From Paraspadella gotoi (Eukaryota; Animalia; Chaetognatha): a DNA stretch of 64,000 nucleotides. The translations under genes were made by a program, and so were the position numbers. A model generated the notes under the pieces. That model saw only the letters and a list, made by a program, of their open reading frames with translations, searched no databases and was not told the DNA's origin. Shown one piece after another: positions 2,512 to 61,122 of this stretch (positions are counted from its first letter, which is position 1; each line of letters begins with the position of its first letter). Location of the stretch: assembly GCA_051294375.1 (NCBI GenBank), contig JBJCIZ010000810.1:14887-78886 (forward strand). The letters run 5' to 3'.

Positions 2512-3120
2512 CTATAAAAAAATTTTAAACCCTACCAGAAGCTTTTCTGTTAAAAAATTTATACCTTTATGATTGAAATGTAAACCATCTTGACAAACAA
2601 AATTTTCTTCCTTATGAAACATTTCTGGATCTACCTTAAAAATACAATCCCTATGACAGCTACAGCGATAATCAGTATCATTCAATTTTTTAATAACTTT
2701 ATTAACATCATAAATGTAATCCTCATTACGAGATTCTAAAAATTTAGTGTTACTGCACAAATTAATTTTTCTTTCACACAGTGGAACATGAAAAATTTTT
2801 AGGTCTGTATAATCTTTATATAATCTGCAAATGTCTTGTTTAATATCCGTGGCGATAATTTGACTTAATTTGGAGGGTAACTCTTCCGAAAAGTTAATAT
2901 GCTTGCTAATGTCATTTTGTCCCATACTTAAAACCAGTATTGAATGTTCTTCCCGTAAATGCTTATAAATATATCCATGCTTTCCAATCAAATCGTTAAC
3001 CTTAGCCCCAGAATAGGTATGTACATCAATCTCTTTTATTTTCGAGTTTAAAACCAGGAATTTCAGGTGGTCATCATTAATTTTTCTGAGTAGACTGTCC
3101 GATAAGAAAAGAGCTGACAT
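2512..3120 (-). CDS. SGNH/GDSL-family hydrolase (esterase-like), 202 aa, single exon
   Basis: SGNH blocks occur in order: LFLSDSL (catalytic Ser), YSGAK, SMGQND, QDGLHFN (Asp/His). Confidence 0.75.
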   Translation of the reverse strand: MSALFLSDSLLRKINDDHLKFLVLNSKIKEIDVHTYSGAKVNDLIGKHGYIYKHLREEHSILVLSMGQNDISKHINFSEELPSKLSQIIATDIKQDICRLYKDYTDLKIFHVPLCERKINLCSNTKFLESRNEDYIYDVNKVIKKLNDTDYRCSCHRDCIFKVDPEMFHKEENFVCQDGLHFNHKGINFLTEKLLVGFKIFL

Positions 3121-3363
3121 TTTTTCCCAATGATATAAAACTGGCTAAAACCCCGGGCCCCAGCTCGTGGGTTGCCGAAGTCATGAGGAAGACGTGGACG
3201 TAGAGGGGGAAGAGCAGCTTTGTGAAGGTTCCTCCGTCTTTCAAAATATTAGAATGTTGTTCAAGGCATTAATATATTCAAGTAAGTCCAGCTCTTTTCT
3301 AAAATTATTCAATAATTAATTTAATTTATAAAAAAATAATATTTTTCGATGAAATATGGTATT

Positions 3364-7429: not shown

Positions 7430-10400
7430 TTATTGGCTCAATCCATCAATCAGCAATATAAGGTTGCCCTTTTTAAGCTCACTTAAAAGAGGTATTGTTT
7501 GTCTTTCACCATTTATTTCAGTAACAAATTTCATTATTTTCTTTAATGGCTTTACTATATCAATTATTTTTCCTTGTACCCAAAACACTTGTCCATTATC
7601 TTTAACTTTTAAATGAAAATTATGCTGAACTAATTTTTCTGGATTAGACAAATAATAATCATAATTTTCCTTTGATTTTTTGATGGCTCGTTTTTGCTTT
7701 GCTGTTTCTATCCTTTCTTCTATTGTCGATATTGTAGCTTCAGCAGCATCAGTGATATCCGAAATAACATTAGGAGCTTCTTCAATAAACTCTAGTTTTC
7801 TTAAATGTGGATTTTCTTCATATATCATATCTAAATGAGCTAGTTTTTCTTTCAAACTGTATTCCTTTTTATTTTTGCTCTTGTTGAATACATTTTTGTC
7901 AGAAGATTTTGCATCCCCAATTCTTTGTAAAAATTCAATCATGAGGTTAATAGCAGATATTTTTTCTTTTTCACTTTGTAATAATTTTAACTTATTTGGA
8001 ATTTCATGTTCCCACCATGGAGGACCATAGGATTCAGTAAATTTTCTTACAATTTCCAACTTTTTTAGGCCTTTTGCGTTATCTTTTTCGGTTTTTGATT
8101 CAATCATTTTCTGACGTTTTTCCAATAATTCTTTTTTGTAATTTTCAGATAATTGCAGGTCTTGTATTTTGTTTTCCTTGTAAGACTTTCGAGCAGAATC
8201 AACTATTTTATGTTGTTCTTCTAAACTTTTAGTATCAAGAAATTCCAATGGCTTATTTGTCCTTAACATTGCATCCGTTTCCAATGTAGTTGGATTTGCT
8301 GTTGGTTTAGAATTTTTTATAAAACGAACAAGTCCAAAGAGTGCTTCTCCCCTTTGATTCGTAGTTGGAACACTGGCTGTCGCGTCTACAAATTTTGGAT
8401 CGTCTTGGAGTTTATCCATTAATCCACCAGCAAGGAAATCATTAGCCTGATTTAAAAGAGTGTGCAGCATTGCATTGCCAATGACTTTAATCAAAGATGA
8501 TATTTGCTTTTTGTCTAAATCGTTAGTCAGTGTTAATTCCATCACTTTTGCTACTTTTTCTTTCTCCAAAAATACTGAGGGGAAAGAAGATTTTCCCTCC
8601 ATCAATATGCTTCCATCTTTTCCAATTTCAGATAAGAAATCGTGGAGGTTTTGCAAATGTGGAATAATTTCTAAAATATGAACCTGAGTTTGAGCATATT
8701 CATCATTGCGATCTTTACCATAAAGTACTCTCCAAAATGGTGAAATAATAAAAACGTCACAAAGACTCATTGCCATTAGTTGATAAAGCGCTAGTTTATC
8801 TTCTAAATCATATTTGATTGAATGATAAATTTGGCAACTATCCTCAAATTCAAAGAAAATCCGGAGATGTTCTAATAAAGTAAGAGCTCTGGTTGAAGCA
8901 GGGAATTCAATTCCACATCTTTCGTGTTCATAATGGACTACATTTGGAATTTTATTTTCCTGGCAGTATGCCTTAAATTTTGGAACTTGCTTCCAAGTTT
9001 GTTCTTTTTGATGAGGGTGAAAGACTGCTGATAGATTTTTTACCAGTCGAACCACAGCTGGAGTTTCCTCGGGAAAAGCATAATCATTTTTACTTTTGTT
9101 AGAAGCCATGTGTTTTGATTCTGTGATGCGCAATGCTTTGATTACAGAGCAACTCATATTACTAATGAGATGCATCTTGCAATAAAAGACATTGATTTTT
9201 GCAAGATTTGAAAGTTGGTCATTTGATAATTGATTATTTTTCAAAACAGAAGGAAGTAATTGACGCTTAAAACGTTCAAGTTCTTTTGCAAAAGCTCCAT
9301 TGATTGGTGCTTGATCTGTCATCGTATTTGTGATCTTTGAGATTATTTCTGCCAACTTTTCTAATTCATCTTCATCTTCTTTAAGTCCTTCTTTGGCAAT
9401 GTCAATAAACTTTTCGTGTACATAAGATAGCAGCGATTTGGCGTCCTCATGGCAGATGGCACGCAGCCCTAGTTTCATTATAAAAATATTAACTAATGAG
9501 GATTAAAAAAATTATTGACAATCATTACTTACCAAGAGTCAAGTATGATCCATCAGAAAAATGAATTTGAGACCCTAAGAAACTCATCGAGTTGTGTGTT
9601 GCCGAATCAATGGCGATGGTTACATCCTTTTCATCTTCAAGCTTATCTTTTATTTGTTTTTTTAACAAGGTTCGACTCTCTGTCATAACTCTTGAAATGA
9701 AAGTTTTAGAGGGAGTTCTAGTCAAATCTGTTCCAGTCAATCTCTTTAGTACTGACTTCATAACCTATGAATTATGAAGCAAGCTTTTAAAACACAATGT
9801 ATAAAAATAATTTTTCTAGACATTTTATTGTATAATCTCTTAATTTAATAGTATAATAATACTTGAACTAATGATAATAATAAGTTTTAGTAATTAATTT
9901 TTAATTTTATCTTATTATAAAATTAAAATTATTATACCTGAGGAATTTTTCTGGCTGGAATTCCAAGCTGAAGAAGATCCCATGCACAAATACGAATTTC
10001 ATTTGTATATTTTCCATTTTCAAAAATGCATAATTCTTGGTCTTTTAATGCATCATTCATTTGCTCTAATACAGTTATTTTTTTTGACTGTATTTTTTTG
10101 TCCTTTTGCATCTCATTGATGACGTAATTGTATTTTGTACAATTTTTTTTTGTTTTTTCCTTATTCTTCCTATTTTGAATTTTTTGTTGAGCAAGCTTTT
10201 GCTGAAGAATGCGTTTTTTCCTTTTTTCTTTTGCTAATTTAGCTAAGAAGTCATTAATTAATTTATCCTTCTGTTTTAGTAGCTTTTCTAGGCCTTTGCT
10301 TTCAATCTGACTTTTTTTTAATTTGCCCATTATTTTTGATACTTTGATTTGCTTCCTGACCTTCATTTTTTTGTTAACCTTTTTTAAGGTGTAAATTTGT

Positions 10401-11718
10401 TTAATGAGCTTGGCTTCTCTTCCTGATTGATTTTCTTTGTAATTATTCTCAGTGACAAAAGAAATATCAAATTTAGAACTTGATGATCGATTATCATTTT
10501 GATTTTCATTAACAAGCTCAGCAGTATGATTAACTATACTTTCTGATATTGATGTAGTTGGATAATGAATCATCTGACCTTCGTCGATCGAATTGTTATC
10601 CACATCCAACAAATTTGAACTTTTAATGTTTATCAAAGGGGAATTTGGTAGACATTGACAATCTATCTTTGAAATTGAATCTAGAGATCCTAGCTCTAGT
10701 GATTCATTGTAACTGTCTACTTGGTGGCTGCCTGAAAAATTGTTGCCAGTTTCATCATAAATAGGTAGCAATCTTGATTGAATATTGCCTGCTATATTTG
10801 TGGTCAAGGCAAGGTCTGGTGTGCTTGGATTTAATGTATTCAGGTAGTTGTCATTAACGGGCTGACTCAAATTGTTTAACTGTTCATCTACCCTTTGAAC
10901 ATGATTACTTTCTTGGGAGAGATTAGGCTGAAATTCGCAATCTAAAGAAAATTTTTAAAAATGTTTGGTAAGGAATGCAGAATGTTGGATATGAAATTTC
11001 ACCTATCAACTGACTATTTTTTATAAGTTTTATAAGTTAAAATTAAACTTTTTTTATAAAAATAAAAAAATTCTACTACCTTTTAAACATAAAAATGGCT
11101 CATTAATATGCTATATTTTGTCTTTGCTTTGATCAAGCAATAATGGACTATGACCTCTCTCCCATTTAAGTAAGTAGACAAGGATTTCTGGGTGAAACCA
11201 ACGTGGATTTATTTACAAGAAAATAGACAGTGAAAATGGTGTCAATTTTTAGACAGAGTGACTTGCCATGGAAAACAAGAGCTATTTATACAATGGAATC
11301 GGATGCGTGACTCAGGCAACTTTGCCCGCCCGATGGAAGCCCGGCTGACCATTGGCCGGTGCCATTTGTCGTTTGACCAATGAGAAAGTCTCTAGTAATT
11401 TCTTCTCGCGTCGCCGATCCGATTCCGACTTTTAGGTTCGATTCCTCTGCGATGCTCCTTTTATACTAAAAAAATTAACTAATAAAAAATACCTCTTAAC
11501 TCTTCAGCGGAAAAAAATGACTGGCTAAAATAATTTTTTCCCAATTCAGTGTTTTCTTTTCTTTTTTTTTTTAAAAAATGTAGTTTCCGAATTCTAGTTG
11601 AAAGTTTTTTTTCAGAAATAAGGACGTTTGGAAAGGATTCTAAAACAGTTTGGACACCAGCTGAAATACTCAACCCTTGTGTGAGCAGCCAAATTTGTTT
11701 TTTTGTTGGTATATCCAT
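7430..11718 (-). CDS. Intact 4-exon DDE transposase of the CxxH (hAT-like) clade, ~1166 aa
   Basis: Exons 11493-11718, 9938-10941, 9533-9764 and 7430-9468 are all GT-AG and phase-compatible (3501 nt). Motifs: VTIAIDSAT (D1), TMTDQA (D2), FYCKMH (CxxH), PTTNQRGEALFG (E); coiled coil in exon 2. Confidence 0.8.
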
Positions 11719-12547: not shown

Positions 12548-15500
12548 GCAAAGAAGAAAAATTGTTATTTTTAATAAAGACTAAATTGTTATTACAGGCA
12601 TGTTGTGACTAGAGTGATAGTCTTCATCAATGCAAATTAACAAATTCAAATGAAATAAATTTTTACATAATTTGTGTGTGTGAGACAGAGAGATAGAGAG
12701 AGAGAAAAAAAGTTAATGTTCATTAAAAAGAATTGAGAGATAGAATATTTTTTTTAAGTTGACAGTTGACAGCCTAAGAGTGAGGACAGTTAATATTGAG
12801 GGAAAAAATCCAGGGAAATGACAGGTTTCAAATCACATACTATAAGCACTGTAAAACATTTTATAAACCTTTTAAGTCGAGCAAATAATTAAATCGCGAG
12901 CAGCAAAAGTTTAATTTTTGCTTATAAAGGATCAATATTTCATTATCCAATAAATAAATATTTTGACCATGTTTACATTTGAAATATACATCCTAGTACA
13001 AAAGTTACTACCAAAATATCTCTATAAATAGTATATAAATACTAATATTTCTCAAGCAACACATATAATTATTATTGATAACATTGTGAAATCCAAATTC
13101 TGTTTCATATAGCTCATTTCAATTGAGCATAAAAAATACATTATATATTATACAACAATAAATAAGCTTTGATCCTTCGACATTGTATAAAAGTTGCAAT
13201 GACTTTTGCAGTTTGTCAATAGAAAGCAAAACAAGAGTTCTGTACTATAAATGATAATTATGAATCAAGCTAAGATAAGAAAAATAGGTTAGTAAAGACT
13301 TTCAAAAAATTTTATGATATTAATTTTTTTTTAGTTGAAAAAATATAATACTGATTGTTGGAAAGAAACTTTCGTGGATTCGTTATGAGCATAAACAGGT
13401 TACTGATTAATATTTCAAAAAGAAAATGCAATCATTACCCTACTAATAATAGATAAATATATTCAGATTGATAAAAATGATAAAAAACTAATTGTACTCT
13501 GTTTAGATAACTTTTTATGGGTTAAATGAATCCTTTTTATGGGTTATATGAATCTATTCTTGAAAATTAAATTTAAAAAAGAATTTGTATTAGCAAAGCA
13601 TAAAAAATAATTTCATATAAATTAATTGAGTACATAAACAACAAAAGAAATTTATAACACAGAACTCCTAATGATTAAATATGGCCATTATAACGGTCGT
13701 GGTTCCAACTTTACAACTGGTTTAAACATTAAACATAATTCCAACCTCGGACTAAGGATATGCTTTACTCATTTGGAAAAGTTGTAAGTTTGAACTTCTT
13801 ATTTCGGTTATTAAAATAAAAATAGTATATTTTTAATGCAATATTTGTATTAATTCCAGCTATTCCAGCTTATACAAATAAAATCGTTGTTAAATCAAAA
13901 ACCAATTTCCGTTAAAGGTTTATCTTTATTTTGAAATCTTAATATAATATCTTAATCTTATTTGTTTAGACAACTTTTAATAGCTATCTGAATCCAATTT
14001 TAAAAAGACATAATTCAATAAAAAATTTTAACATTTCTTATTTATAAATAAATATTAAAAAATTAATTACTTGTGCTTCTAGCCATTTAAAAAAAAATTT
14101 GGTCCATTTAAAGTTTTTTCAATGTATAAATTTTCATTTGGGAAGGTTCTCAAATCAAAATTCTGACCAACCCCATTGACATAGATTTGCCCTATTACAA
14201 CCCAATATTTTTAAAGATTTTCCATGTCCCAAAACGAGTCCAAACTTTTACTTTTCCACATTTACCAGCTTTAATTAGAGTTTTCCTTTTTTCCAGTATT
14301 AATTATACCATTTATCTGTTGGAAGAAACAATTTTTTATCAAATTTAATGTTAATTAAAATTTATTCCTTTAATTAACATTAGAAATACAGTCAGTAATT
14401 ATTATCATTTATCAATTCAATTAATTTATTGTTCTTTGAAAAATTACAACTTACAACAATTACAAGATGCCAGTTAGATTTAAGTGAAATTGTTTGTTTT
14501 GCTCACAGACAACGAATTTGTTTTTATTTTCAAGGCTAATATTAGCAGAAACATGTATGTTTTTCCCCTTAAAAACAAAACAAAAAATTTCACTTAATTC
14601 TAATTTCAAATGCAATGAAACAATAACCTCAAAATAAAAATATGCCTGTTAAAATTTTAAAAGTGAAAACATGTTGAAAAGGCCTATTAATTAATAAATT
14701 TGTAATTTTTTTGTTACTTGAACTATTTTTATTTATAATATTAAGCTTATATTATTATAGCATTAGTCAGACATTGCAACAAGTTCAACCCGCCTAAAAG
14801 CCTTCAGTTCTAACGCGGTTGCTCGATGAGTATTAATTAACATCAACGTATGACTGCTAGATACCGGGACCAATCCCCAATGATATCTACCCTGTGAAAA
14901 GGATGGCCTTTAACCGCTTTTGGGGAAAAGAAATCCCTTAAGAATGGCTTCCCGGGATACTTTTCATTGCTCTTGATGGGGCTCAGAAGATACTATTTAT
15001 TACCTTTAGCGCCTTATAAAATAAAAGATTACAAATAGTAATCTGATTGTTACTGAATAAAATTGAAATAAAAATATTTTATAGTGTACTAAAATCCTAC
15101 AATCGTTCATCAGCGGCCATTGTTGCAGTAGTCAAGTCATTCTCTTCCCAACTCAAATGTTTGGGGTTTTAGCCCAGTAGCCGTTTAGCAGTTAAAAGGG
15201 ACCGGGTGCTTAAACAGCCGGAAAAAAAAATTAACCTAAGTTAGGGTTGGGGGAGAGGCATGGAGTTTAACAGGAGGCCTGGTTTAGGGTTAGGGTTGGG
15301 GAAGGAGCCCGTGGGTGATGCGTTCATCCCCGTGTCTCAACATCAGCCGCGAGCCTCTCCTCTAACTCGCGCCTTTCATTATATTCGCTACTTTTATCAC
15401 TGGCGAGGTGACATCGCCAGGGTCCTGGCGATATCGCTATGGCGAAGTCGCCAACCAACTAGAACCAACTCTATAAAATTTTTAAAAATATTTATTAAGT

Positions 15501-15843
15501 AAATAATCTCTAAATTTAAAATTTATAAATTTATCATAACATTTAAATTATATTTGTTTTACTTTCAAAATTTTATTAAACATTTTTTTAAAAATTGATA
15601 AATTCTTCATTGATTTCTATAATAGCAAGTTGAAGCAAAATGATTGTTTTTTCCGCAGATGTAGCATCTTCGGTTGGTACGCCTTCTGAGAATAATTTAA
15701 GAGCATTATGGTTGTTTTAGGATAAGAAAATTTTAATATACAGGAGTCGGAAACAAAACTTATTAAAATTTTATTATCTTTACAAATAAACGAATATCTC
15801 CGGAACCATTTGAAGAATATCAGTGAAATTTATATCAAATATT

Positions 15844-16037
15844 ATGGTGGACTAAAATCCACCAACCATTTATCGACGGCCATTGGTACCGGAGGCAAGT
15901 CAACCGCCTCCCAATCCAAAAGGTTAGGGGTTTTAACCCGGTGGTCGCCTAGCAGTTAAGAGGGACGGGACGCTTAACCCGCCTGTAACACGGTCTTATA
16001 GCCTGATCTGAAGCTCAGAGACTGCATATATTGAACA
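15844..16037 (+). mobile_element. tRNA-derived SINE copy
   Basis: Clearly homologous to 3364-3569. Confidence 0.7.
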
Positions 16038-16228
16038 GTAGGGTGAAGTGAAAGTTTGGAATCAAAATTTAACAGTTATATTTTGAAAACTATCATATTA
16101 GTGAAAATTAATCTATACTTATTTTTTTTTTACAAATATAGTAATCCAGTCAGCTTATTTTGTATATAGTACTACCCTTGTATAATAAAGCGTAGTGACA
16201 GTTACGTACGGAAATTCTAAAAGTTTTA

Positions 16229-18395: not shown

Positions 18396-18903
18396 ATTCA
18401 TCAAGTTAAGGAATAAGGTTTAGGGTTAAGAAATTATTTCAAGAAAAAAAATTATGAACTAAAATTTGGTAGATTGTGCTGAACAATTATTAATAGTCAA
18501 CTTACGGAGTAAAATCTATTGTTATTTGTCCGATGTATTCGTTAACTCTGAGAGTAGAAGTAAAAATTAAAGCATATTTCAATGGTTAGTATCTTACATT
18601 CCTCTATGATTGGTTGTACAATTGTCACTGCAGATAAAAATAATGAAAATAAAAATAAATAAATATTTTTTTATATGTTCTTTTGGCAGATTATTTTATA
18701 ATTTTTATTTTATATATGCTCCATAAAAACTGAAACAATTTTTAATATTAATAATAATTAAGTTGAGATCATTTAAATTCAATTATTGTTTTTTTAATCA
18801 TTTTTTGTTGATTTAATTAGATTGGATTTAATTATTCAAATATTTTGTTATAGTATTTAGCGTTTGGACTTTTTAAACAATATTTTTACCAAATTTATTA
18901 GTA

Positions 18904-19454
18904 CAGAAGGCTTCATATTATAAAATGAGGTACCCTTTTTTGTGACCAGAATCTGGTCCAACCAAACTACCCGATCGAATTTCATGAAATTTTACATTTA
19001 GAGTTCTAATGACAATATAAATGGGATTATCGAGGCGTATTTTATATTTAACCCATGACAAGAGATACAGGGCCATTTTTTATGCGCATCAGGTACATTG
19101 ACGTTTTAAACATATAAAAAACATTTTAGAACTAAAATTGATAAATTTTCGTTAATAAAGTATTGTTTGAAGATGCATGGTTCATCGTTTTACTTTCAAT
19201 TTTCCCAAATTGAAACTGTTCAAAACAAAAATAATGAAATAATTTTTTAAAAATATTTTTAGCTTTTTTTGGACCCCTAGGGCCCTGTATCTCTTGTCAG
19301 GGGTCAAATATTGAAATTTGCCTCGATAGTTCTATTTGTATTCACATAGGGATTGTTCATACCAAATTTCAACAAATTTGGTCCAGTAGTTTTCTCGGAG
19401 CGTGTTCTGGTCACAAAAAAACGGGTACCTCATTTTATAATATGAAGCCTTCTG
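18904..19454. mobile_element. Tc1/mariner-type MITE, TA TSD
   Basis: TA|CAGAAGGCTTCATATTATAAAATGAGGTACCC ... GGGTACCTCATTTTATAATATGAAGCCTTCTG|TA. Confidence 0.85.
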
Positions 19455-19475
19455 TATTTTCTTTTAAATTCAAGT

Positions 19476-22400
19476 TTACATTGTCATCGTTCCTCCGTTG
19501 TTTGGACTTCTTCCATCGAAACGCCGCGCTTTGAAGGAGGATTGGTATTTTGTCGATTTCTTCAAATCATCTCTGATGTAAAAAATAAGTTAACTACTGA
19601 GGCATTTAGTTAAGCACGTATAAACCTTAGATCGATTTAATTAACAGAAAAAACCTATTCGGGAAACTACTTGGAACCATCAGGGGAGACCTTCGTACAT
19701 ATCCTAGAGTGGTTTTTAAATTTGTTTTCTAAAGCACGTTTTTTAGAAAATTTTATTAAAATCAAATTTTTTTTTGAAGAAAAATTATTTAAAAAAAATT
19801 CATGTAAAACTGTATTTAAGGCAAATAAGTAAAATTAAGGTATTCATCCTGATGAATTTTTCAAGACCTTTCAGATGAATTCATTTTCATCATTTTAAGA
19901 TGATTCAATCACGAGATAATCGACTTACAAGTAATATTTTTCTTTATATTTATTTCTTTTTTCTTTATTTCATTTATTCTTATAATTATACAAAATTCGT
20001 CAATATAATTTATTAGCATTAAGTCACCTCTACTCCTGTTTGTAAAAAGTAAAATTAGAGTCTAGGAAAAAGTAGCTATATACCGAGGGTAATGTTGCGT
20101 AGAGTGTAGTAGGTCTTTCGGTTTGTACCGACGTTCTTCGCGTTCTTCGCGTTCTTCCCGTCTTCGATCACAACGTTCGTCGCGTCGATCACTCCGATCG
20201 TCCTGCACGGTTCATTTGAAAAGAGGAAAAATAAAATGAAAATATACCATCTCTGAAATGATAAAAAGCTGAAACTTTGCGGTTTGGATAAATTTATAAT
20301 AGCTTAAGCAAACCGAGAGCTTTAATTTAAGACCAAATGAATATATATTAATTTTAATATTAATATTAATATTAATATTAATTTGAATCAAAAATTTATA
20401 GCGAGTACAAGCTCAAACAATTTTTTTTATATTTTAAATATACTTTCAATGGACAAAATTTTTTTTATATAGCTCTATACCCTAGAATTAATTTTTTAAT
20501 ATTTATTTATAGATAGGAAAGGCCAAAAAAGTTTTGAAAATTTTTAAATTTTAAGACCAGATTCAGATAGCTCATAAAAAGTTATCTAAACAAAGTATAA
20601 TTTAAAAAAAAAATATTTATCATAAGTAGGTCAATAATAAAAAAAATGTAAAAAATCATCATTATCATCATCTTTTGATGATTTTATAAGTTTTTTTAGA
20701 TTTTTACTGAGAAAACGTAAGAATTTTAAAAAGCTGTAATTTTGTTTCTTATTTAACTCTATCCGAATCCATCAAAACATTTTAAGATTTTAAATTTTTT
20801 TTTATATAGTAATATAATACTTTTAATTATGCTAATATACAAAAAAATATTTTAATACTATAATCTATGCTCATGATAAATTATTTTAATGCTGTATACA
20901 TTAGCATTTAAATTTTATTAGCTATAGCTAATAATGATTTAATATTATTTTAACTATTAAATATGGACTGGAAACTATAGAATATGACCTTCATTTTGAG
21001 CCTACTCCCAACTCTTTATGATAAATATTTATGAAATTATTTAATAAAAAAGCCTCAAAAATTACAAAAACATAAAAAATATTTATTTTATTTTCATATA
21101 TAACTTTTTTTGAGTCAAATGATTTTATTTGCAGATTAATGTATATGGGATGTATTAAATACTATTAGTTATATTATTTTATTTATAATTTATTCAGTGT
21201 ACCTAATTTTCGTTCAATTATAACCAAAATTACATATACTTTTGTTTGCTACAGCAACAAAATAAAAAAACAGTTAAAAAGAAATTATTTATAAAATTTT
21301 ACTACCTAACCGAAACTTCTCTTGATAATAAAATTTTAGATTTTTATCATTCCAGAGTTGGTATATTTCCATTTTCTTTTTCCTCCTATCAAATGAACCG
21401 TGCCTGATAACTATCACGATCTTCGTCGCGCTGGTCTTTGCGGCGATCCCTTGAGCGCTCCTCTCGGCGGTCACCATGCTGATCGTCGCGTCGAGCGCCC
21501 TCGCCTTCCCCTCTCATTCGCTCCTTTCTTTCCTCGCGGAGTATTTCCCTTCTTCTGCTTCTTTTCTCTTCTTTTTTTCCATCCTCCATCATTTCCTGGA
21601 CGTCGACCATAATATCTTCAAATGATTCCCTTAAAAATTAACAAACAGAGTCTCAAAAGTACTGCCAATTTACAGAATACAGCGAATCAGAACAGTTTAA
21701 ATTAAATATTAAAAATATAAAGTTCTTATTTTTTGTTAAATGAATGAATAATTTTTATATTGGTTGTACCAATTTCATTAAATACAAACTATTAACTTAA
21801 AACATTTAAGAAAAAATATTTTAAAAATCATCTTTTTTGCCGCCCTAATTAAAAATTATTTTTTTCAGCTACTCGGCTTTAAGAGAAAGTGAAGAGAAAG
21901 TAATTATTGATATATATTAATGACAGAACCGTTCAATAAAGCAGTCCCTGAGCTTCGGATCAGGCTGTAACACCATGTTACAGGCGGGTTAAGCGCCCCG
22001 TCCCTCTTAACTGCCAGACGACCACCGGGCTGGAACCCGGACCTTTGGGTTGGGAGGCGAATGACTTGCCTCCGGCACCAATGGCCGCTGATGAACGGTT
22101 GGTGGATTTTAGTCCACCATAAAAGTAATTATTATTATGTGATAGTGAAAGAACCATTCAATATAAGCAATCCCTGAGCTTTGGATCAGGCTGTAAATTC
22201 GTTTGAAATACACATGAGCTGCTGTAAAAACTATTCTATGCATCTCACATTATATGCTGAATCATAAATTAAAAAAATTTCAGCATTTCTCAGTTTTGAA
22301 AGTTCAATGACCATCCACAAGAACAAATGTTTTCACAATCGTTCGTTAAATTATATTTACTGAAATAAGTATGTGTTTTGAAATATATTTCCTAATATAT

Positions 22401-22524
22401 AAAAATATTAGGCAAAAGCGCTCGGCTTGTTATTTTTGTAAAACAATGTGCAGTAATATAAGTAACAAAGAAGAAAATAATAATGATTAAGAAAAATGAA
22501 CCTGTGTTCCGTAGACTTGTCCAT
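19476..22524 (-). CDS. Predicted 4-exon gene, 154-aa Arg/Asp/Glu-rich protein of unknown function
   Basis: Exons 22502-22524, 21404-21629, 20084-20202 and 19476-19572 join in frame (465 nt): MDKSTEHR-ESFEDIMVDVQ...RDEDRDSYQ-DDRSDRRDER...QHYPR-DDLKK...TM*. Exons are GC-rich islands; intron 2 is GC-AG. Confidence 0.65.
20206..21402. mobile_element. Non-autonomous Chapaev/CMC-like TIR element forming an intron (Introner-like)
   Basis: ~70-bp imperfect TIRs starting CACGGTTCATTTGA; 4-bp TSD CCTG at 20202-20205 and 21403-21406 (CAGG on the gene strand). CAC...GTG ends with a 4-bp TSD are the Chapaev signature. Confidence 0.8.
21917..22120 (-). mobile_element. tRNA-derived SINE copy (inside intron 1 of the R/D-rich gene)
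   Basis: Reverse complement of 3364-3569. Confidence 0.7.
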
Positions 22525-22759
22525 TTTGGCACCTGTTAAGCAATAATTAAAATTATAAAAATAAAGAAATTTATACGAGTCAGAGCCATGAGCCACAATC
22601 AGTAGAGAGCTACGGAGTTTATTTGGTTACTTTGACCGTGTTTAACCAACGTAGAAATAATATTATTTCTAAGATCTCGTGTTCGAAAAATTTAGTTTTC
22701 AAAAGAATAGTCGCATTCTCCTTGTATATGACTTTTTAGGAGGTTAATATAAATATAAT

Positions 22760-25700
22760 AACGTTAACCTCAACTACTTAATTCTTATGACAGAGGTTAT
22801 CTTGATGACGGAAGGGTCAACTGACGAGTCGCCAGATGTCCATTAATCAGCTTACTATCTCACCTCACTGAACAAATCGCCTACCCTTAATATTTTTTTT
22901 AAAACTTACAGCGTCGGTCTAGCGTCAATGTTCGACATCATTTTCCGAACATCGGACAATAAAAGCCGAGAAATGCCGTTCGACCGCAACCGATTTATCA
23001 GATATGTGACCGACCATCGTCGTGCGTCATTTTGGTGCTGAGCTTCGACGCTTGATCCTTAGTATCCAAGTAAAATTAACATGCTAACGCAAATATTCGT
23101 TGGTTGTTTTATACTTATAGTCGTAAGCTCTTACCATTAATTTTCATTATTTGCGCATCTCACCTACTTCCTTAACCATACGCTTCCTNNNNNNNNNNNN
23201 NNNNNNNNNNNNNNNNNNNNNNNNNNNNNNNNNNNNNNNNNNNNNNNNNNNNNNNNNNNNNNNNNNNNNNNNNNNNNNNNNNNNNNNNNNNNNNNNNNNN
23301 NNNNNNNNNNNNNNNNNNNNNNNNNNNNNNNNNNNNNNNNNNNNNNNNNNNNNNNNNNNNNNNNNNNNNNNNNNNNNNNNNNNNNNNNNNNNNNNNNNNN
23401 NNNNNNNNNNNNNNNNNNNNNNNNNNNNNNNNNNNNNNNNNNNNNNNNNNNNNNNNNNNNNNNNNNNNNNNNNNNNNNNNNNNNNNNNNNNNNNNNNNNN
23501 NNNNNNNNNNNNNNNNNNNNNNNNNNNNNNNNNNNNNNNNNNNNNNNNNNNNNNNNNNNNNNNNNNNNNNNNNNNNNNNNNNNNNNNNNNNNNNNNNNNN
23601 NNNNNNNNNNNNNNNNNNNNNNNNNNNNNNNNNNNNNNNNNNNNNNNNNNNNNNNNNNNNNNNNNNNNNNNNNNNNNNNNNNNNNNNNNNNNNNNNNNNN
23701 NNNNNNNNNNNNNNNNNNNNNNNNNNNNNNNNNNNNNNNNNNNNNNNNNNNNNNNNNNNNNNNNNNNNNNNNNNNNNNNNNNNNNNNNNNNNNNNNNNNN
23801 NNNNNNNNNNNNNNNNNNNNNNNNNNNNNNNNNNNNNNNNNNNNNNNNNNNNNNNNNNNNNNNNNNNNNNNNNNNNNNNNNNNNNNNNNNNNNNNNNNNN
23901 NNNTTAATGATTGAAATATCTTAAATCGAATAACGTCTAACCTGTTATTGTCTATGTATGTTATTTCATTGCTAATCTTTAACTTTGTTTTGTCAGTTAG
24001 GTCTTAGGCTTTTTTTTTGGATTGCTCATGTACTGATACTGAATCAACCTTGTTGGGAATTCACGAAATCGAAATACACAACGGCATATACTTAGACCTA
24101 AACTTGTTTAAGCCTGCTGCGCTGTTAATACGTATTATAAAAATAGTCTAATTAATTGACATTGGTTCAATAATTATTTTGAAAAGTTATTTCGTCTGAC
24201 GTTAAATGAACATATTTTGAGCCTTCTGTCTTTAAAAATTAAGTTCAGGGTTAAATACTTGATTCTAACTCAATTAGGATACGGATAAGCTTTACTACTT
24301 ATTGCCCATTCAATATTTAGTCGTACTTACTAGTATAAAATGTAAAGTCTATAAGATTTATTGATTACTAAAACAAGAATGTAATTTTTTTTCATAAAAA
24401 ATAGATAAAAAGAGGCCAGTAAATATCATAATTTTGTTTCCACCTAGTCAGTAGAGGGGCATGCTATTTAGGTTCACCTTCAGTTTCGTGACCCGGTGGA
24501 TGATTAAGTAATTCATCAGGCACCTGACTATTATGGTACCGGGATCAACCTTAACAGGTACCTACATCGGCGGGAAGGCGTGAGGACAGCCGAAACCGCC
24601 TTTGGGGCCTGGGATTAACCCTCAAGCCTGCGTCCGGAAGCTAGACTCGTTCCTTTGCTGCTGAGGAGGGTCCACAGAGATGCGGTATAGTCTTTCTGCC
24701 ACTTAGTGGTCTTATCCCACAGGATGGCCGAAAATTATAAAACGGTGAAATATGAAGCCATGAACCAGTCGAACTTTTAGAAAAGAAACCGCTTAAAAAG
24801 TGAAATTGAAAATTAGTGAAACATCAGAAAAAAATCCCGTGATATACTAAAACACAACACGGGTTGAAAACCTGTGTATGTGTAAATGTGCAACTCTTTA
24901 ACAGTGCTCTTTTAAAAAAATATTAAATAGTAAAACGTGGGTCAACTTGAAAGTATGATATGCTTACTTTATGTTTGAACTGGGAGAAACCTGACAATAA
25001 AGCCACCGCATCCTCATCTAAATAACACTCAAACGCTCTGAAAGAGTAACGTTTTTTGGCGCCATGGTTGATGACGGAAGCACGGGTTGAGAAAGCGCTG
25101 AAAAGGGTGGGAAAAATTAAGGTCCTAAAATTAAAAAATCACAGTAAAGAAAATTATTATTTAAGCATATAGATTCCTTAATCCATATTAGTCAATTTTC
25201 ACATTTAAATACTATATACTATATAAGAAAAGCTATACCAGATCAAAAAACTTGATAATATAATGAATATGCGCACAAATATGGACCATTATATAGCATA
25301 CTTAAATTTAAAAAATTGATCCAAGAAAACTCCAGTAGTTATTACATAAAGACTAAGTAATTGGTAAATAAATTTGGTCATGTATTTTTTTTTAATATTA
25401 AATTAGATATTTCATAATATTCATCTAATATTTTTATAATATTTATTAAATAATATTTTTTATTGTTTCCTTAGATAAAGGATAGTAAAAGACGACCTTT
25501 TTTAATAATGCACTTATTTTATACAAATTAAAATTTAAATAATTCATATCAATTTAAAATATTTTTTTTACGTAAATTTGTTCCAAAAAATTTTGAAAAA
25601 TAAAATGTAAAAATTAAAAAAAGTGAAAAACTGGTACTAATTTAAATTGAATGTTTTGCACAGAAAAATTAATAAAAATTACATTCGAAATATAGTATCA

Positions 25701-33881: not shown

Positions 33882-34454
33882 AGAGATATATGTTTACACC
33901 TTCTAGCCATCAGTGATAAGGATAAGCGAAGCGAACTTGAGTGTTTTAATCGGAATCCTGTGATTAAATCTGTTTTTAATCTGAATCTTGTGATTAAATC
34001 GACGGAGATACTTGAGAATAAAGATTTCGATTGTTTGTATTACTGTTTTTTGCTGAACTAGTAGAGATGCTCAATAATAGATAACTATGAGGAAATAAAA
34101 GTTGGCGATTGGTAAACAAACAGTCTCTAACCGAGTCTCGCCGATTGTCGACTTTAGAATGGCTTCTGGAAGAGGAGGGGAAGAAGAAGAAGGCAGGTTC
34201 AGTCCCTTGTTGATAGACCTCACGGAGGAGGATGAAGATGATACTCACCCCCCCATCCTCCCCCTCTCCTCCTTCACCCCCTCCTCCCACCTCATGGATA
34301 GAAAATGGGGGAGAGGAGGGGAGGAGGAGAGGGGTGGAGGAGTTGGGGGGTGGATGGATGGAAAATGGGGGTTACTCATCCTCGGAAATCGAGTTAAGAG
34401 AAGTCGGGGGGGCCTTTCTCGATTCTCCGAGGCTTCCCGAGTCAACTCGGAAGA
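33882..34454 (+). repeat. Left TIR of the Maverick (~570 bp)
   Basis: Reverse complement of 60552-61122; starts AGAGATATATGTTTACACC. Confidence 0.9.
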
Positions 34455-35106
34455 CCTCCTTAGTGTCGTTGTCGTTGTCGGTCTCGTCGTCGTCGTTTGT
34501 CTCGGCGTCGTCGTCGTCGTCCGTCTCGGCGTCGTTGTCGTCGCCGTGAGGGATAAGTGTCGAGATCTGATAAGAGAGAGAGAAGAGAGAAAAAAAAATT
34601 CGAGGCGAAAAAAAAACATTCAAGGCGAAAAAAAACCATTCGAGGCGAAAAAAAATAAACTTACAACAAGAGACGAAAGCGTTCCATGGCGGCGCGCGTA
34701 AAGCGCCAGCATTGGTCGCGGACGAACGCTGTCAGAAACAAGAGAGAAAGAGACGACTAGTTAGTGTTTCCGTTGCCATGACCCAATTCTTCTTGAAAAG
34801 CTTACTTTCTGTTTTTCCTTCTGTTTACGCAATTCTGGAAGAGAGAGAGAAAGAAAGGAATTAGTATAAATGTTAATATTTTTTGTGTTATCCCAATATA
34901 CACTGTAAATACACTAACATTACACTGTTCCGATTCCCCTAAAACGGGGCCTTCTTGAAGTTTGAGGTTGTTGCTATTGGTCAATTTGACCAAAAAAAAA
35001 AAACTATAAAAAGTTTCTTTTTTTTTTAATTCTAAAAATTAAAAAAACGCCAATAAGTATAAATATCAGAAAAAAAATCCAAAAAAATATTAATTCTATG
35101 TCTATC

Positions 35107-38691: not shown

Positions 38692-39981
38692 AACAAGTTT
38701 GAGCAAACAATGTCGGATCTGCCTACGATAATTAATTAATTAATTAATTAATCGATTAATTAATTAATTAATTTTAATATGTAATAATTAATTTTAAATT
38801 TATATTCAACTTATCATCATCGATGTCCTTAAAATTGGGTTAGGACAGTTATTAAATATGTTTTGTTTACATTTTATCAAAACAAACAAATATCCTTTAT
38901 TTTATTTTATGTCTCCTTGTCTCTCTCACTCTCTCTCTCTCTCTCTCTTTTTATGCAATTGCGACGATCTTTATGCTTTTAAGATTTTTTTAACTTGCAT
39001 AATTTTTTCACATTAATTAATTAATTAATTAACTAATTAATTAATTTAAACATTTATTAGTAATCATTAATATTAAAGATTCAAGTAAATGTGACTTATG
39101 TTTTCCATCTAAAATCCATTTCCACTGGCACAATTCCGTCAAAACTTTATATAGTTATTATATATTAATAAATATTTAAAAGCTTCAGTGCAACAATCCA
39201 ATGAACTAAATCAAAAAGTTACATTGAAAATCGATTTAGTAGTAAAAGGAAAAAAAAATTTAAAGAGAACTAGGAGTTATAAAAAGTGTTCAATTTTGGC
39301 CCGCCTTACTAGATATTAGGCCGGAACAGGTTGAAAACTAGAAGTTCTCTCAAATGGTTAATGGTTAATGGTTAAGCGACTATTAAATAATATAAAATGA
39401 AAATAATTTTTAAAATTTTGCTTATCAATTTTTTTATAGATTCTGATAGAGCTTTAAAAGTTAGATAAAGGTTATTAATACAACTTTTTTTTTGTTTTAT
39501 TAATGAAAAATTTTTAAAAATAAAATTCAGCCAATAATGATAATGATGATAATTTTTTAAGGTTTTTTCTATTTTTAACCAATTTATTGTCAAAATTTGA
39601 AAAAATTATAGTACTAACTTTCATTTAACTTTTTAAGCTCTACAAGAATCCGTTCTTAAAAAAATCAAATTTTTAAAATTTTTTTTGTCATTTGTTATAT
39701 TATTAATAAATATTTAAAAGCTTCAGTGCAACAACCCAATGAACTAATTCAAAAAGTTACATTGAAATCGATTTAGTAGTAGAAGGAAAAAAGAAATTTT
39801 TTTGAGAGAACTAGAAGTTATAAAAAGTGTTCAATTTTGGCCCACCTTACTAGATATATTGCATGTGATTAAACAATGTTATCGGAATAATAATTTTATC
39901 AATTTTATGTATTTTGTAAGTATTTTAATTATTTTTATTCAGTGAGTAAAATAACTTTTTTATTCGCTAATTTTTATTTCG

Positions 39982-60182: not shown

Positions 60183-60551
60183 AAAATTGGGAACTCTCTC
60201 TCTCTCTCAACGAGAGAGAGAGAGGTTGGAGGGGGGAGAAGAGTAAACAATCAATAATTGTATATATATGCAAATTAGTGTGTTTTTTCTGGTGATGGTT
60301 ACTACTAATATATGTAAAAAAAAAAGTCTCTCGTCTCTTTCTTTTCTTTCTTTCCTTACGAAACGACTATTAAAAAAGGGAGGAAAAAAATGATTACGTC
60401 CCAGTTAGTTACCTATATTAATATGAAGATACCACGACATCCCATCATTTTTTCCTACGCGAGGAAAAAAGGAGATTTTAGTAATGTTAGATAATTTTAG
60501 TTGTATATTAAAAAGTATTTTAAATGATCCGTCGTTGACGCCCCTCCCGGA

Positions 60552-61122
60552 TCTTCCGAGTTGACTCGGGAAGCCTCGGAGAATCGAGAAAGAGAGTCGG
60601 GGGGGCCCTTCCGACTTCTCTTAACTCGATTTCCGAGGATGAGTAGCCCCCATTTTCCATCCATCCACCCCCCAACTCCTCCACCCTCCCTCCTCCCCTT
60701 TTCCCTATTTTCCATCCATGAGGTGGGAGGAGGAGGAGAGGGGGAGGATGGGGGTGAGTATCATCTTCATCCTCCTCCGTGAGGTCTATCAACAAGGGAC
60801 TGAACCTGCCTTCTTCTTCTTCCCCTCCTCTTCCAGAAGCCATTCTAAAGTCGGCAATCGGCGAGACTCGGTTAGAGTACTGTTTATTGTTTACCAATCG
60901 CTAACTTTTATTTCCTCAGTTGTCTATTATTGAGCATCTCTACTAATTCAGCAAAAAACAGTAATACAAACAATCGAAATCTTTATTCTCAAGTATCTCC
61001 GTCGATTTAATCACAAGATTCAGATTAAAAACAGATTTAATCACAGGATTCCGATTAAAATACTCAAGTTTGCTTCGCTTATCCTTATCACCGATGGCTA
61101 GAAGGTGTAAACATATATCTCT
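60552..61122 (-). repeat. Right TIR of the Maverick
   Basis: Reverse complement of 33882-34454; ends GGTGTAAACATATATCTCT. Confidence 0.9.

Follow-up and report, generated by a model that had tools for sequence, protein, structure and literature searches.

The closest described counterparts of the locus reported here are introners, insertions whose ends and target duplication supply the splice sites and whose removal restores the exon. In Micromonas pusilla IE1 and the dinoflagellate GC-AG introners (PMC11282704) a TIR element with a GC or GT donor takes its acceptor AG from the duplication and restores the exon exactly, features that the present locus shares; there, however, the donor is borne by the element and the copies are many, whereas here the donor would consist of one duplication base and one TIR base, and the intron is putative. 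A survey that sets at least four sequence-similar introns in a genome as the criterion for an introner family found introners in just two animal groups (PMC9860276). Five introner families have been classed as CMC-EnSpm (Gozashti et al. 2025, PMC12130899, supplementary file 8). Panicum virgatum fam9 is entered with CAC..GTG ends, gc 3/5 and 'co-opt 5 prime', and Lolium rigidum fam8 with gc 2/6, 'co-opt both' and a 3-nt duplication. These grass introners have in common with our element the CAC..GTG ends and GC donors drawn from the insertion site, and differ from it in forming families of 5-6 annotated introns, against a single putative copy with a 4-bp duplication here. None of the 11 rows of that file that mention CMC or Chapaev holds a Chapaev-classed or an animal CMC introner, and a Chapaev-type class making introns in an animal is absent from the CMC introners in those rows. 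Literature searches found nothing linking Introner with Chapaev, nothing on the present case among papers on Chapaev transposons and intron gain (judged from titles and the opening lines of abstracts), and nothing on perfect splicing of such insertions in a multi-term search. The intron-making mechanism is already known; an animal case of Chapaev type would add a new member to the systems described.

Chapaev DNA transposons, of the CMC group, are marked by 5'-CAC..GTG-3' ends with a 3-4-bp target duplication (PMC4079192), and related CMC/Transib lineages have common CA..TG ends with 2-5-bp duplications (PMC12730594). A second class of relevance is that of the circRNA-derived pseudogenes, as defined by Dong et al. 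(2016, PMC4897178). We analysed 64,000 nt of contig JBJCIZ010000810.1 of Paraspadella gotoi (Chaetognatha), hereafter the window, in which a Chapaev-like element interrupts a coding exon of a predicted gene.

Element, ends and target duplication

The insertion and the putative intron that it would form comprise the following features.

20206..21402, minus strand: non-autonomous TIR element, 1197 bp, with CACGG..CCGTG ends and no coding capacity
21330..21402, minus strand: left TIR, ~73 nt; its first C completes the putative GC donor, and a second donor, GT, lies at 21398 (ACG/GTTCAT)
20206..20278, minus strand: right TIR; carries a candidate branch point, a pyrimidine tract whose last base is 20218 and, at 20252, the rival acceptor TTTCAG
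21403..21406, minus strand: CAGG duplication, first copy, ending in the G with which the putative intron would begin
20202..20205, minus strand: CAGG duplication, second copy; its CAG would serve as the acceptor and its final G opens exon 3
20203..21403, minus strand: putative GC-AG intron, 1201 nt, predicted from sequence

Read on the minus strand, TAT CAGG (21406-21403) is followed by the 1197-bp element (21402-20206), a second CAGG (20205-20202) and ACGAT. The element is 20% GC and non-coding, its longest stop-free stretch being 66 aa, and its termini are CACGG..CCGTG. Both TIR arms begin CACGGTTCATTTGA; their first 14 nt are identical, and 9 of 73 positions differ (a second measurement gave 74 nt and 88%). 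A 14-nt perfect inverted pair with 4-nt direct-repeat flanks arose in just one of 200 first-order Markov resamplings of 19000-23000, for which reason the element was judged real; the actual arms far exceed the 14 nt used in that test.

Two hallmarks of Chapaev are found, namely CAC..GTG termini with TIRs (CACGG..CCGTG, 73-nt arms, nine differences) and, at this one site, a target duplication of 3-4 bp (CAGG on both sides), a possible alternative parse being a 2-bp AG duplication around GCACGG..CCGTGC (GCAC) ends, which results in the same empty site. EnSpm-like 3-bp and Transib-like 5-bp duplications were rejected because the flanks mismatch, and Chapaev3 because it duplicates TWA. We refer to the element as 'Chapaev-like', a putative class assigned from the ends alone, the transposase being absent from the element; in this absence it differs from the Chapaev DNA transposons described in PMC4079192. 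The initial annotation had proposed a Chapaev-like TIR element with a CAGG duplication, and the non-autonomous structure, the Chapaev-type ends and the 4-bp duplication bear it out.

Within the window the element's interior resembles 13961-14130 (76%) and 39400-39719 (68%) and, as read from these matches, is a patchwork that includes pieces of high-copy repeats. Near 20450-20520 the element also contains the nested end of a repeat related to a high-copy MITE-like repeat. At 22492-22506 the predicted donor region of intron 1, CACAG/GTTCATTT, resembles the start of the TIR (21390-21402), CACG/GTTCATTT; this likeness is probably due to chance, since intron 1 was not seen to contain a far end to match.

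Other mobile-element-like features lie elsewhere in the window. ORFs of 690 and 340 aa at 7430-10954 on the minus strand look, by their motifs, like a spliced transposase gene; neither matched a Pfam family, and no homologue of the 690-aa ORF (7433-9502) was found. The stretch 34000-61000 is GC-richer, with fragmented, partly repeated ORFs, and has sequences similar to each other at its two borders, near 34100-34700 and 60500-60900. Its ATPase-, integrase-, protease- and capsid-like ORFs recall a Polinton/Maverick-like element, and no Pfam match to these ORFs was obtained at E 0.01. An intron-free 210-aa ORF at 2512-3144 (minus strand) gives a weak GDSL/SGNH hydrolase match (E 3.6e-06) and possibly derives from a mobile element.

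The host gene

The gene model, read on the minus strand, is as follows.

Donor near 22909, acceptor near 22532, minus strand: predicted 5' UTR intron upstream of exon 1
22502..22524, minus strand: exon 1, coding part, predicted; ATG at 22524
21404..21629, minus strand: exon 2, 226 nt, R/D/E-rich, 52% GC; in 9 public runs
20084..20202, minus strand: exon 3, 119 nt; joined to exon 4 in contigs of 4/4 runs mapped
Between 20084 and 19572, minus strand: intron 3, 511 nt, GT-AG; seen removed in contigs
19480..19572, minus strand: exon 4, 93 nt; acceptor seen used, donor AAT/GTAAAC predicted and in register with the junction of a permuted copy (see below)
18598..18627, minus strand: exon 5, predicted, 30 nt, phase 2-2
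18506..18547, minus strand: exon 6, predicted, 42 nt, phase 2-2; preceded by a 50-nt intron with TACTAAC
15607..15685, minus strand: exon 7, predicted; CCHC zinc knuckle and stop codon

With the element removed, seven coding exons give 203 stop-free codons; the boundaries of intron 3 alone are seen used, in contigs, and the remainder of the model is prediction. The removal of intron 3 in public contigs upholds the earlier view of a real multi-exon host gene, but the gene is longer than the two other introns first proposed would make it: the apparent stop of exon 4 is intronic and three exons follow. The predicted protein is rich in R, D and E over its N-terminal half and carries a CX2CX4HX4C knuckle at the C-terminus (Pfam zf-CCHC, E 0.0027, 18.2 bits, under the curated cut-off of 20.8). 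No Pfam family was found in exons 2, 3 or 4, no homologue was found with exon 2 as the query, and single-exon queries gave no usable Atlas match.

Several repeats accompany the gene. The repeat at 21928-22122 in intron 1 recurs inverted in intron 6 (15842-16039, 86%) and downstream of the gene (15067-15219, 79%), where short CCCTAA repeats also occur in a repeat-like stretch at 15240-15300. Intron 4 contains, at 18902-19456, two inverted copies, 79% alike, of a very high-copy MITE-like repeat.

Exact intron geometry and splice signals

Cutting 21403-20203 as GC..AG restores the target exactly and joins the 226-nt and 119-nt exons in frame. The putative GC donor is formed by the last duplication base and the first TIR base and the acceptor AG comes from the duplication; the predicted splice sites are thus made from element ends and duplication and the exon is restored, as in introners. 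Read unspliced, the frame meets a stop directly after ARFI, following 87 codons. In all these respects, that is the exact geometry, the in-frame fusion of the exons and the stop after ARFI, the sequence agrees with what had first been annotated. We consider it possible, at just short of an even chance, that exact GC-AG splicing takes place at the locus, so that the element would be removed at least in part and the original mRNA restored.

The predicted donor, CAG/GCACGG, matches U1 at 6/9 positions, equal to or above all five GT donors of the coding introns (5-6/9, that of intron 3, at 5/9, being seen used), and this argues for exact splicing, as do the GC donors known in the CAC..GTG-ended CMC-EnSpm introners of Panicum virgatum. 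It nevertheless misses +4 and +6, which tells against exact splicing, since GC donors usually lie closer to the consensus than GT donors, offsetting the C (PMC2490688); GC donors are also weaker overall (PMC7242645). The acceptor is the poorest of six, with pyrimidines at four of the ten positions from -14 to -5 (6-8 at the other five coding-intron acceptors), and a better rival in the right TIR, 50 nt upstream at 20252 (8/10 pyrimidines), breaks the frame. Upstream of the acceptor are a 19-nt pyrimidine tract and a candidate branch point, with no AG before the CAG; the branch point candidate is the motif TTCAT (A at 20237). The TIR had been said to supply the pyrimidine tract, and a tract is indeed present, but it ends 16 nt before the acceptor and 12 purine-rich TIR bases precede the CAG. 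A further point against exact splicing is that the two arms are able to pair, at a computed -88.6 kcal/mol, across both splice sites.

The weak GC donor, the weak acceptor, the stronger rival at 20252 and the long TIR duplex would all be expected of a plain disruption, in which the element is retained or spliced out of frame to leave a truncated and probably degraded message. We give this outcome a somewhat less than even chance; here the insertion would persist because it is recent and because the orphan gene is dispensable or already silent. Its case is helped by the lack of any homologue found and by the ease with which the geometry arises: any CAC..GTG element with a 4-bp duplication would create an exact GT/GC-AG intron at 17 of the 608 positions (2.8%) of this coding sequence. 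No special adaptation is therefore needed, and a large scan will meet such cases by chance. The intact state of the seven exons and of all other splice sites speaks against a plain disruption.

Of 40 donor-acceptor pairs tried, 38 lose the knuckle, which favours a plain disruption, and two retain it. One is the exact GC-AG cut, and its place in this pair of survivors favours exact splicing, as does the stop-free, seven-exon frame of 203 codons with the knuckle at its end. The other joins the GT donor at 21398 to a GAG acceptor at 20191 (201 aa) and belongs, together with a skip of exons 2 and 3 that would join exon 1 directly to exon 4 and leave 88 aa including the knuckle, to an unlikely third outcome, rescue by another route. 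Both variants retain frame and knuckle, and positions +1 to +6 of the GT donor at 21398 (GTTCAT) are the same as in the predicted intron 1 donor; however, the skip costs 115 of 203 residues, the acceptor at 20191, a GAG, comes only after a CAG, and the exonic side of the GT donor is poor (ACG).

The insertion in public sequencing runs

A run search with exon 2 found it in 9 of the 11 runs listed, from three studies; none is recorded as RNA, and hence they have no bearing on expression. Contigs of four of the 11 runs (X1, X2, X4 and X6) were mapped, onto 19300-20520 only, and X1 and X2, whose tables are near-identical, were treated as a single data set. X4 and X6 resemble genomic DNA, since their contigs run across introns without differences and at even depth (the run types being guessed). 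Contigs across the junction of exon 3 and the element extend over 20176-20336 in X4 (depth 82) and 20195-20336 in X6 (depth 141.6), and contigs in intron 3 have like depths (55.6 and 71.8 in X4; 87.5, 109.3 and 186.4 in X6), the three pieces measured in this depth comparison having a GC content of 0.32-0.35. Depth is noisy and is not copy number, the exon side of the junction contigs amounts to 30 letters (X4) and 11 letters (X6), below the 31-letter rule, X4 may be the source of the assembly, and X6 differs at 20122. The comparison weakly hints that all intron-bearing gene copies carry the insertion in these two samples, which would lend slight weight to exact GC-AG splicing and count, as slightly, against a plain disruption.

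Summed depth over the TIR, which is not copy number, is ~80x (X4) and ~120x (X6) that of the adjoining interior, and related ends are therefore numerous. The interior beside the right TIR (20284-20365) has single-copy-like depth (82 and 24 in X4), and at 20135-20470 no letter differences are listed despite the high depth from other copies. The lack of listed differences suggests a young insertion whose right TIR is the same as that of most family members. With a young insertion an intact ORF is to be expected even if the gene is dead, and the protein, without a homologue found, may be dispensable; both points reduce the case for exact splicing. It is reduced further by the contigs themselves: across 19300-20520 in the four runs the part of exon 4 joined to exon 3 never exceeds 24 nt, and no colinear mRNA was therefore seen.

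A permuted intron-free copy of exons 2 to 4

All four mapped runs skip the 511-nt intron 3 (19572 to 20084), always with just 24 letters of exon 4. X1/X2 contain a 548-nt contig that, followed in the direction of the gene, starts with 49 foreign letters and continues with 19555-19472, 215 letters, 20205-20084, 19572-19549 and, last, 54 foreign letters. A model that runs from exon 4 (from 19555) through exons 2 and 3 back into exon 4 (to 19549) is 445 nt long, the exact length of contig positions 55-499, and amounts to one turn of a 438-nt circle of exons 2, 3 and 4 with 7 nt (19549-19555) present twice. In this register the exon 2 acceptor is set against GTAA at 19479 (GT occurs at 4% and GTAA at 0.4% of positions). 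It speaks against a clean back-splice that a simulated permuted copy aligned only to 19476-19479, the real one reaching 19472 with two differences; the data are explained equally well by a crossover lying a few letters further on in the same register. In X6 exon 3 is preceded by the same 78 letters as in the X1/X2 contig, and in X4 and X6 the contigs of genomic exon 4 begin at 19526, as expected if the two forms diverge at 19555. Parts of the permuted copy, flanked by foreign sequence, occur in X4 and X6 at a depth similar to that of the contigs there that span the intron.

The copy is free of introns, in that intron 3 is skipped in 4/4 runs and the 215 letters between the exon 4 piece and exon 3 are too few for the element (X1, X2). 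Its putative non-colinear junction matches in order and length the exon 4 donor joined to the exon 2 acceptor (445 nt, the 215 letters themselves not being seen). We think it fairly probable that this candidate is a circRNA-derived retrocopy at another locus, which would have entered and left at the 7-nt microhomology; the rival origin is a processed copy of a tandemly duplicated transcript. Like the circRNA-derived pseudogenes of PMC4897178, it is intron-free, has its exon order reversed at one junction and contains the exons of the circle only; those were described in mouse and human, whereas this one has exactly one turn with a 7-nt overlap and is likely to be from an invertebrate. A search for an inverted repeat pair between introns 1 and 4 found none. 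Such pairs can favour back-splicing.

The permuted copy bears a seamless junction of exons 2 and 3. This is also the structure of the pre-insertion exon, and insertion and copy both look too young to be ordered; the copy therefore neither proves nor refutes GC-AG splicing. We rejected the seamless X1/X2 junction as proof of splicing since the contig is permuted and has foreign flanks, and the exon 3-4 joint is also present in X4 and X6. Because an intron-free copy with the same junction occurs in DNA-like runs, reads joining 21404 to 20202 are, on their own, confounded as a test of splicing. The alignment of the copy does run through 20205, which fits the exact junction or the pre-insertion exon only and so weighs against rescue by another route.

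Is there an introner family?

No other copy of the element was found in the window or in viral or metagenome collections. A 26-letter TIR pattern had no match in metagenomes and a 20-letter pattern none in viral contigs; the 78 metagenome loci that match an 18-letter pattern were treated as chance, since in no case does the match continue along the TIR or come with a partner end. The loose ends listed for the four runs over 19300-20520 include no flanks of other copies.

The initial annotation had postulated a CMC/Chapaev-derived intron-generating family. This we cannot support: one exonic copy is seen, the interior near the right TIR is at single-copy depth, and the geometry is available at 17 of 608 sites. 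A true introner family, with many Chapaev-like copies forming GC-AG introns at nAGG sites genome-wide, would be a subset of exact GC-AG splicing and is very unlikely. The numerous related ends in the reads (~80x and ~120x in summed depth) would suit it, and the TIR, purine-rich on one strand, would offer a pyrimidine tract in either orientation. Against this stand the single exonic copy, the single-copy depth of 20284-20365 and the 12 nt between tract and AG. Introners are short in familiar examples, which was likewise counted against a family, and they are rare in animals in the survey cited above (PMC9860276). We place equally little belief in the fuller proposal that a TIR family of Chapaev type is the source of exact GC-AG introns at exonic nAGG sites in an animal genome and that the retrocopy postdates the insertion, recording both the splicing of the new intron and a back-spliced circle copied into DNA.

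Discussion

A candidate single intron gain and a plain disruption stand at about even odds. Were the element to be spliced exactly, events would run as follows. A Chapaev-type transposase would recently have inserted the element at CAGG in a coding exon, and U1 would use the CAG/GCACGG donor. The right TIR would supply the branch point and the pyrimidine tract, the next AG being the CAG of the duplication, and the contrast between purine-rich exons of 52% GC and an insert of 20% GC may help exon definition. Whichever way the element lies, the geometry itself would follow from CAC ends combined with a 4-bp duplication at an nAGG site, and the locus is for that reason best read as a lucky single insertion and not as the product of a specialised intron-making family.

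The permuted copy serves as a warning that a retrocopy can yield seamless junction reads. It is at the same time a candidate circRNA-derived retrocopy outside mammals, whose clean structure of one turn plus 7 nt points to a single microhomology as the place of both entry and exit. If the element is not spliced, the locus is an ordinary gene-breaking insertion. If it is spliced, this young insertion, removable without a trace, would show intron gain at an early stage, in animals, where introners are rare in the survey of PMC9860276; and, if that is true, Chapaev-type ends would need no adaptation to make introns at ~3% of coding sites.
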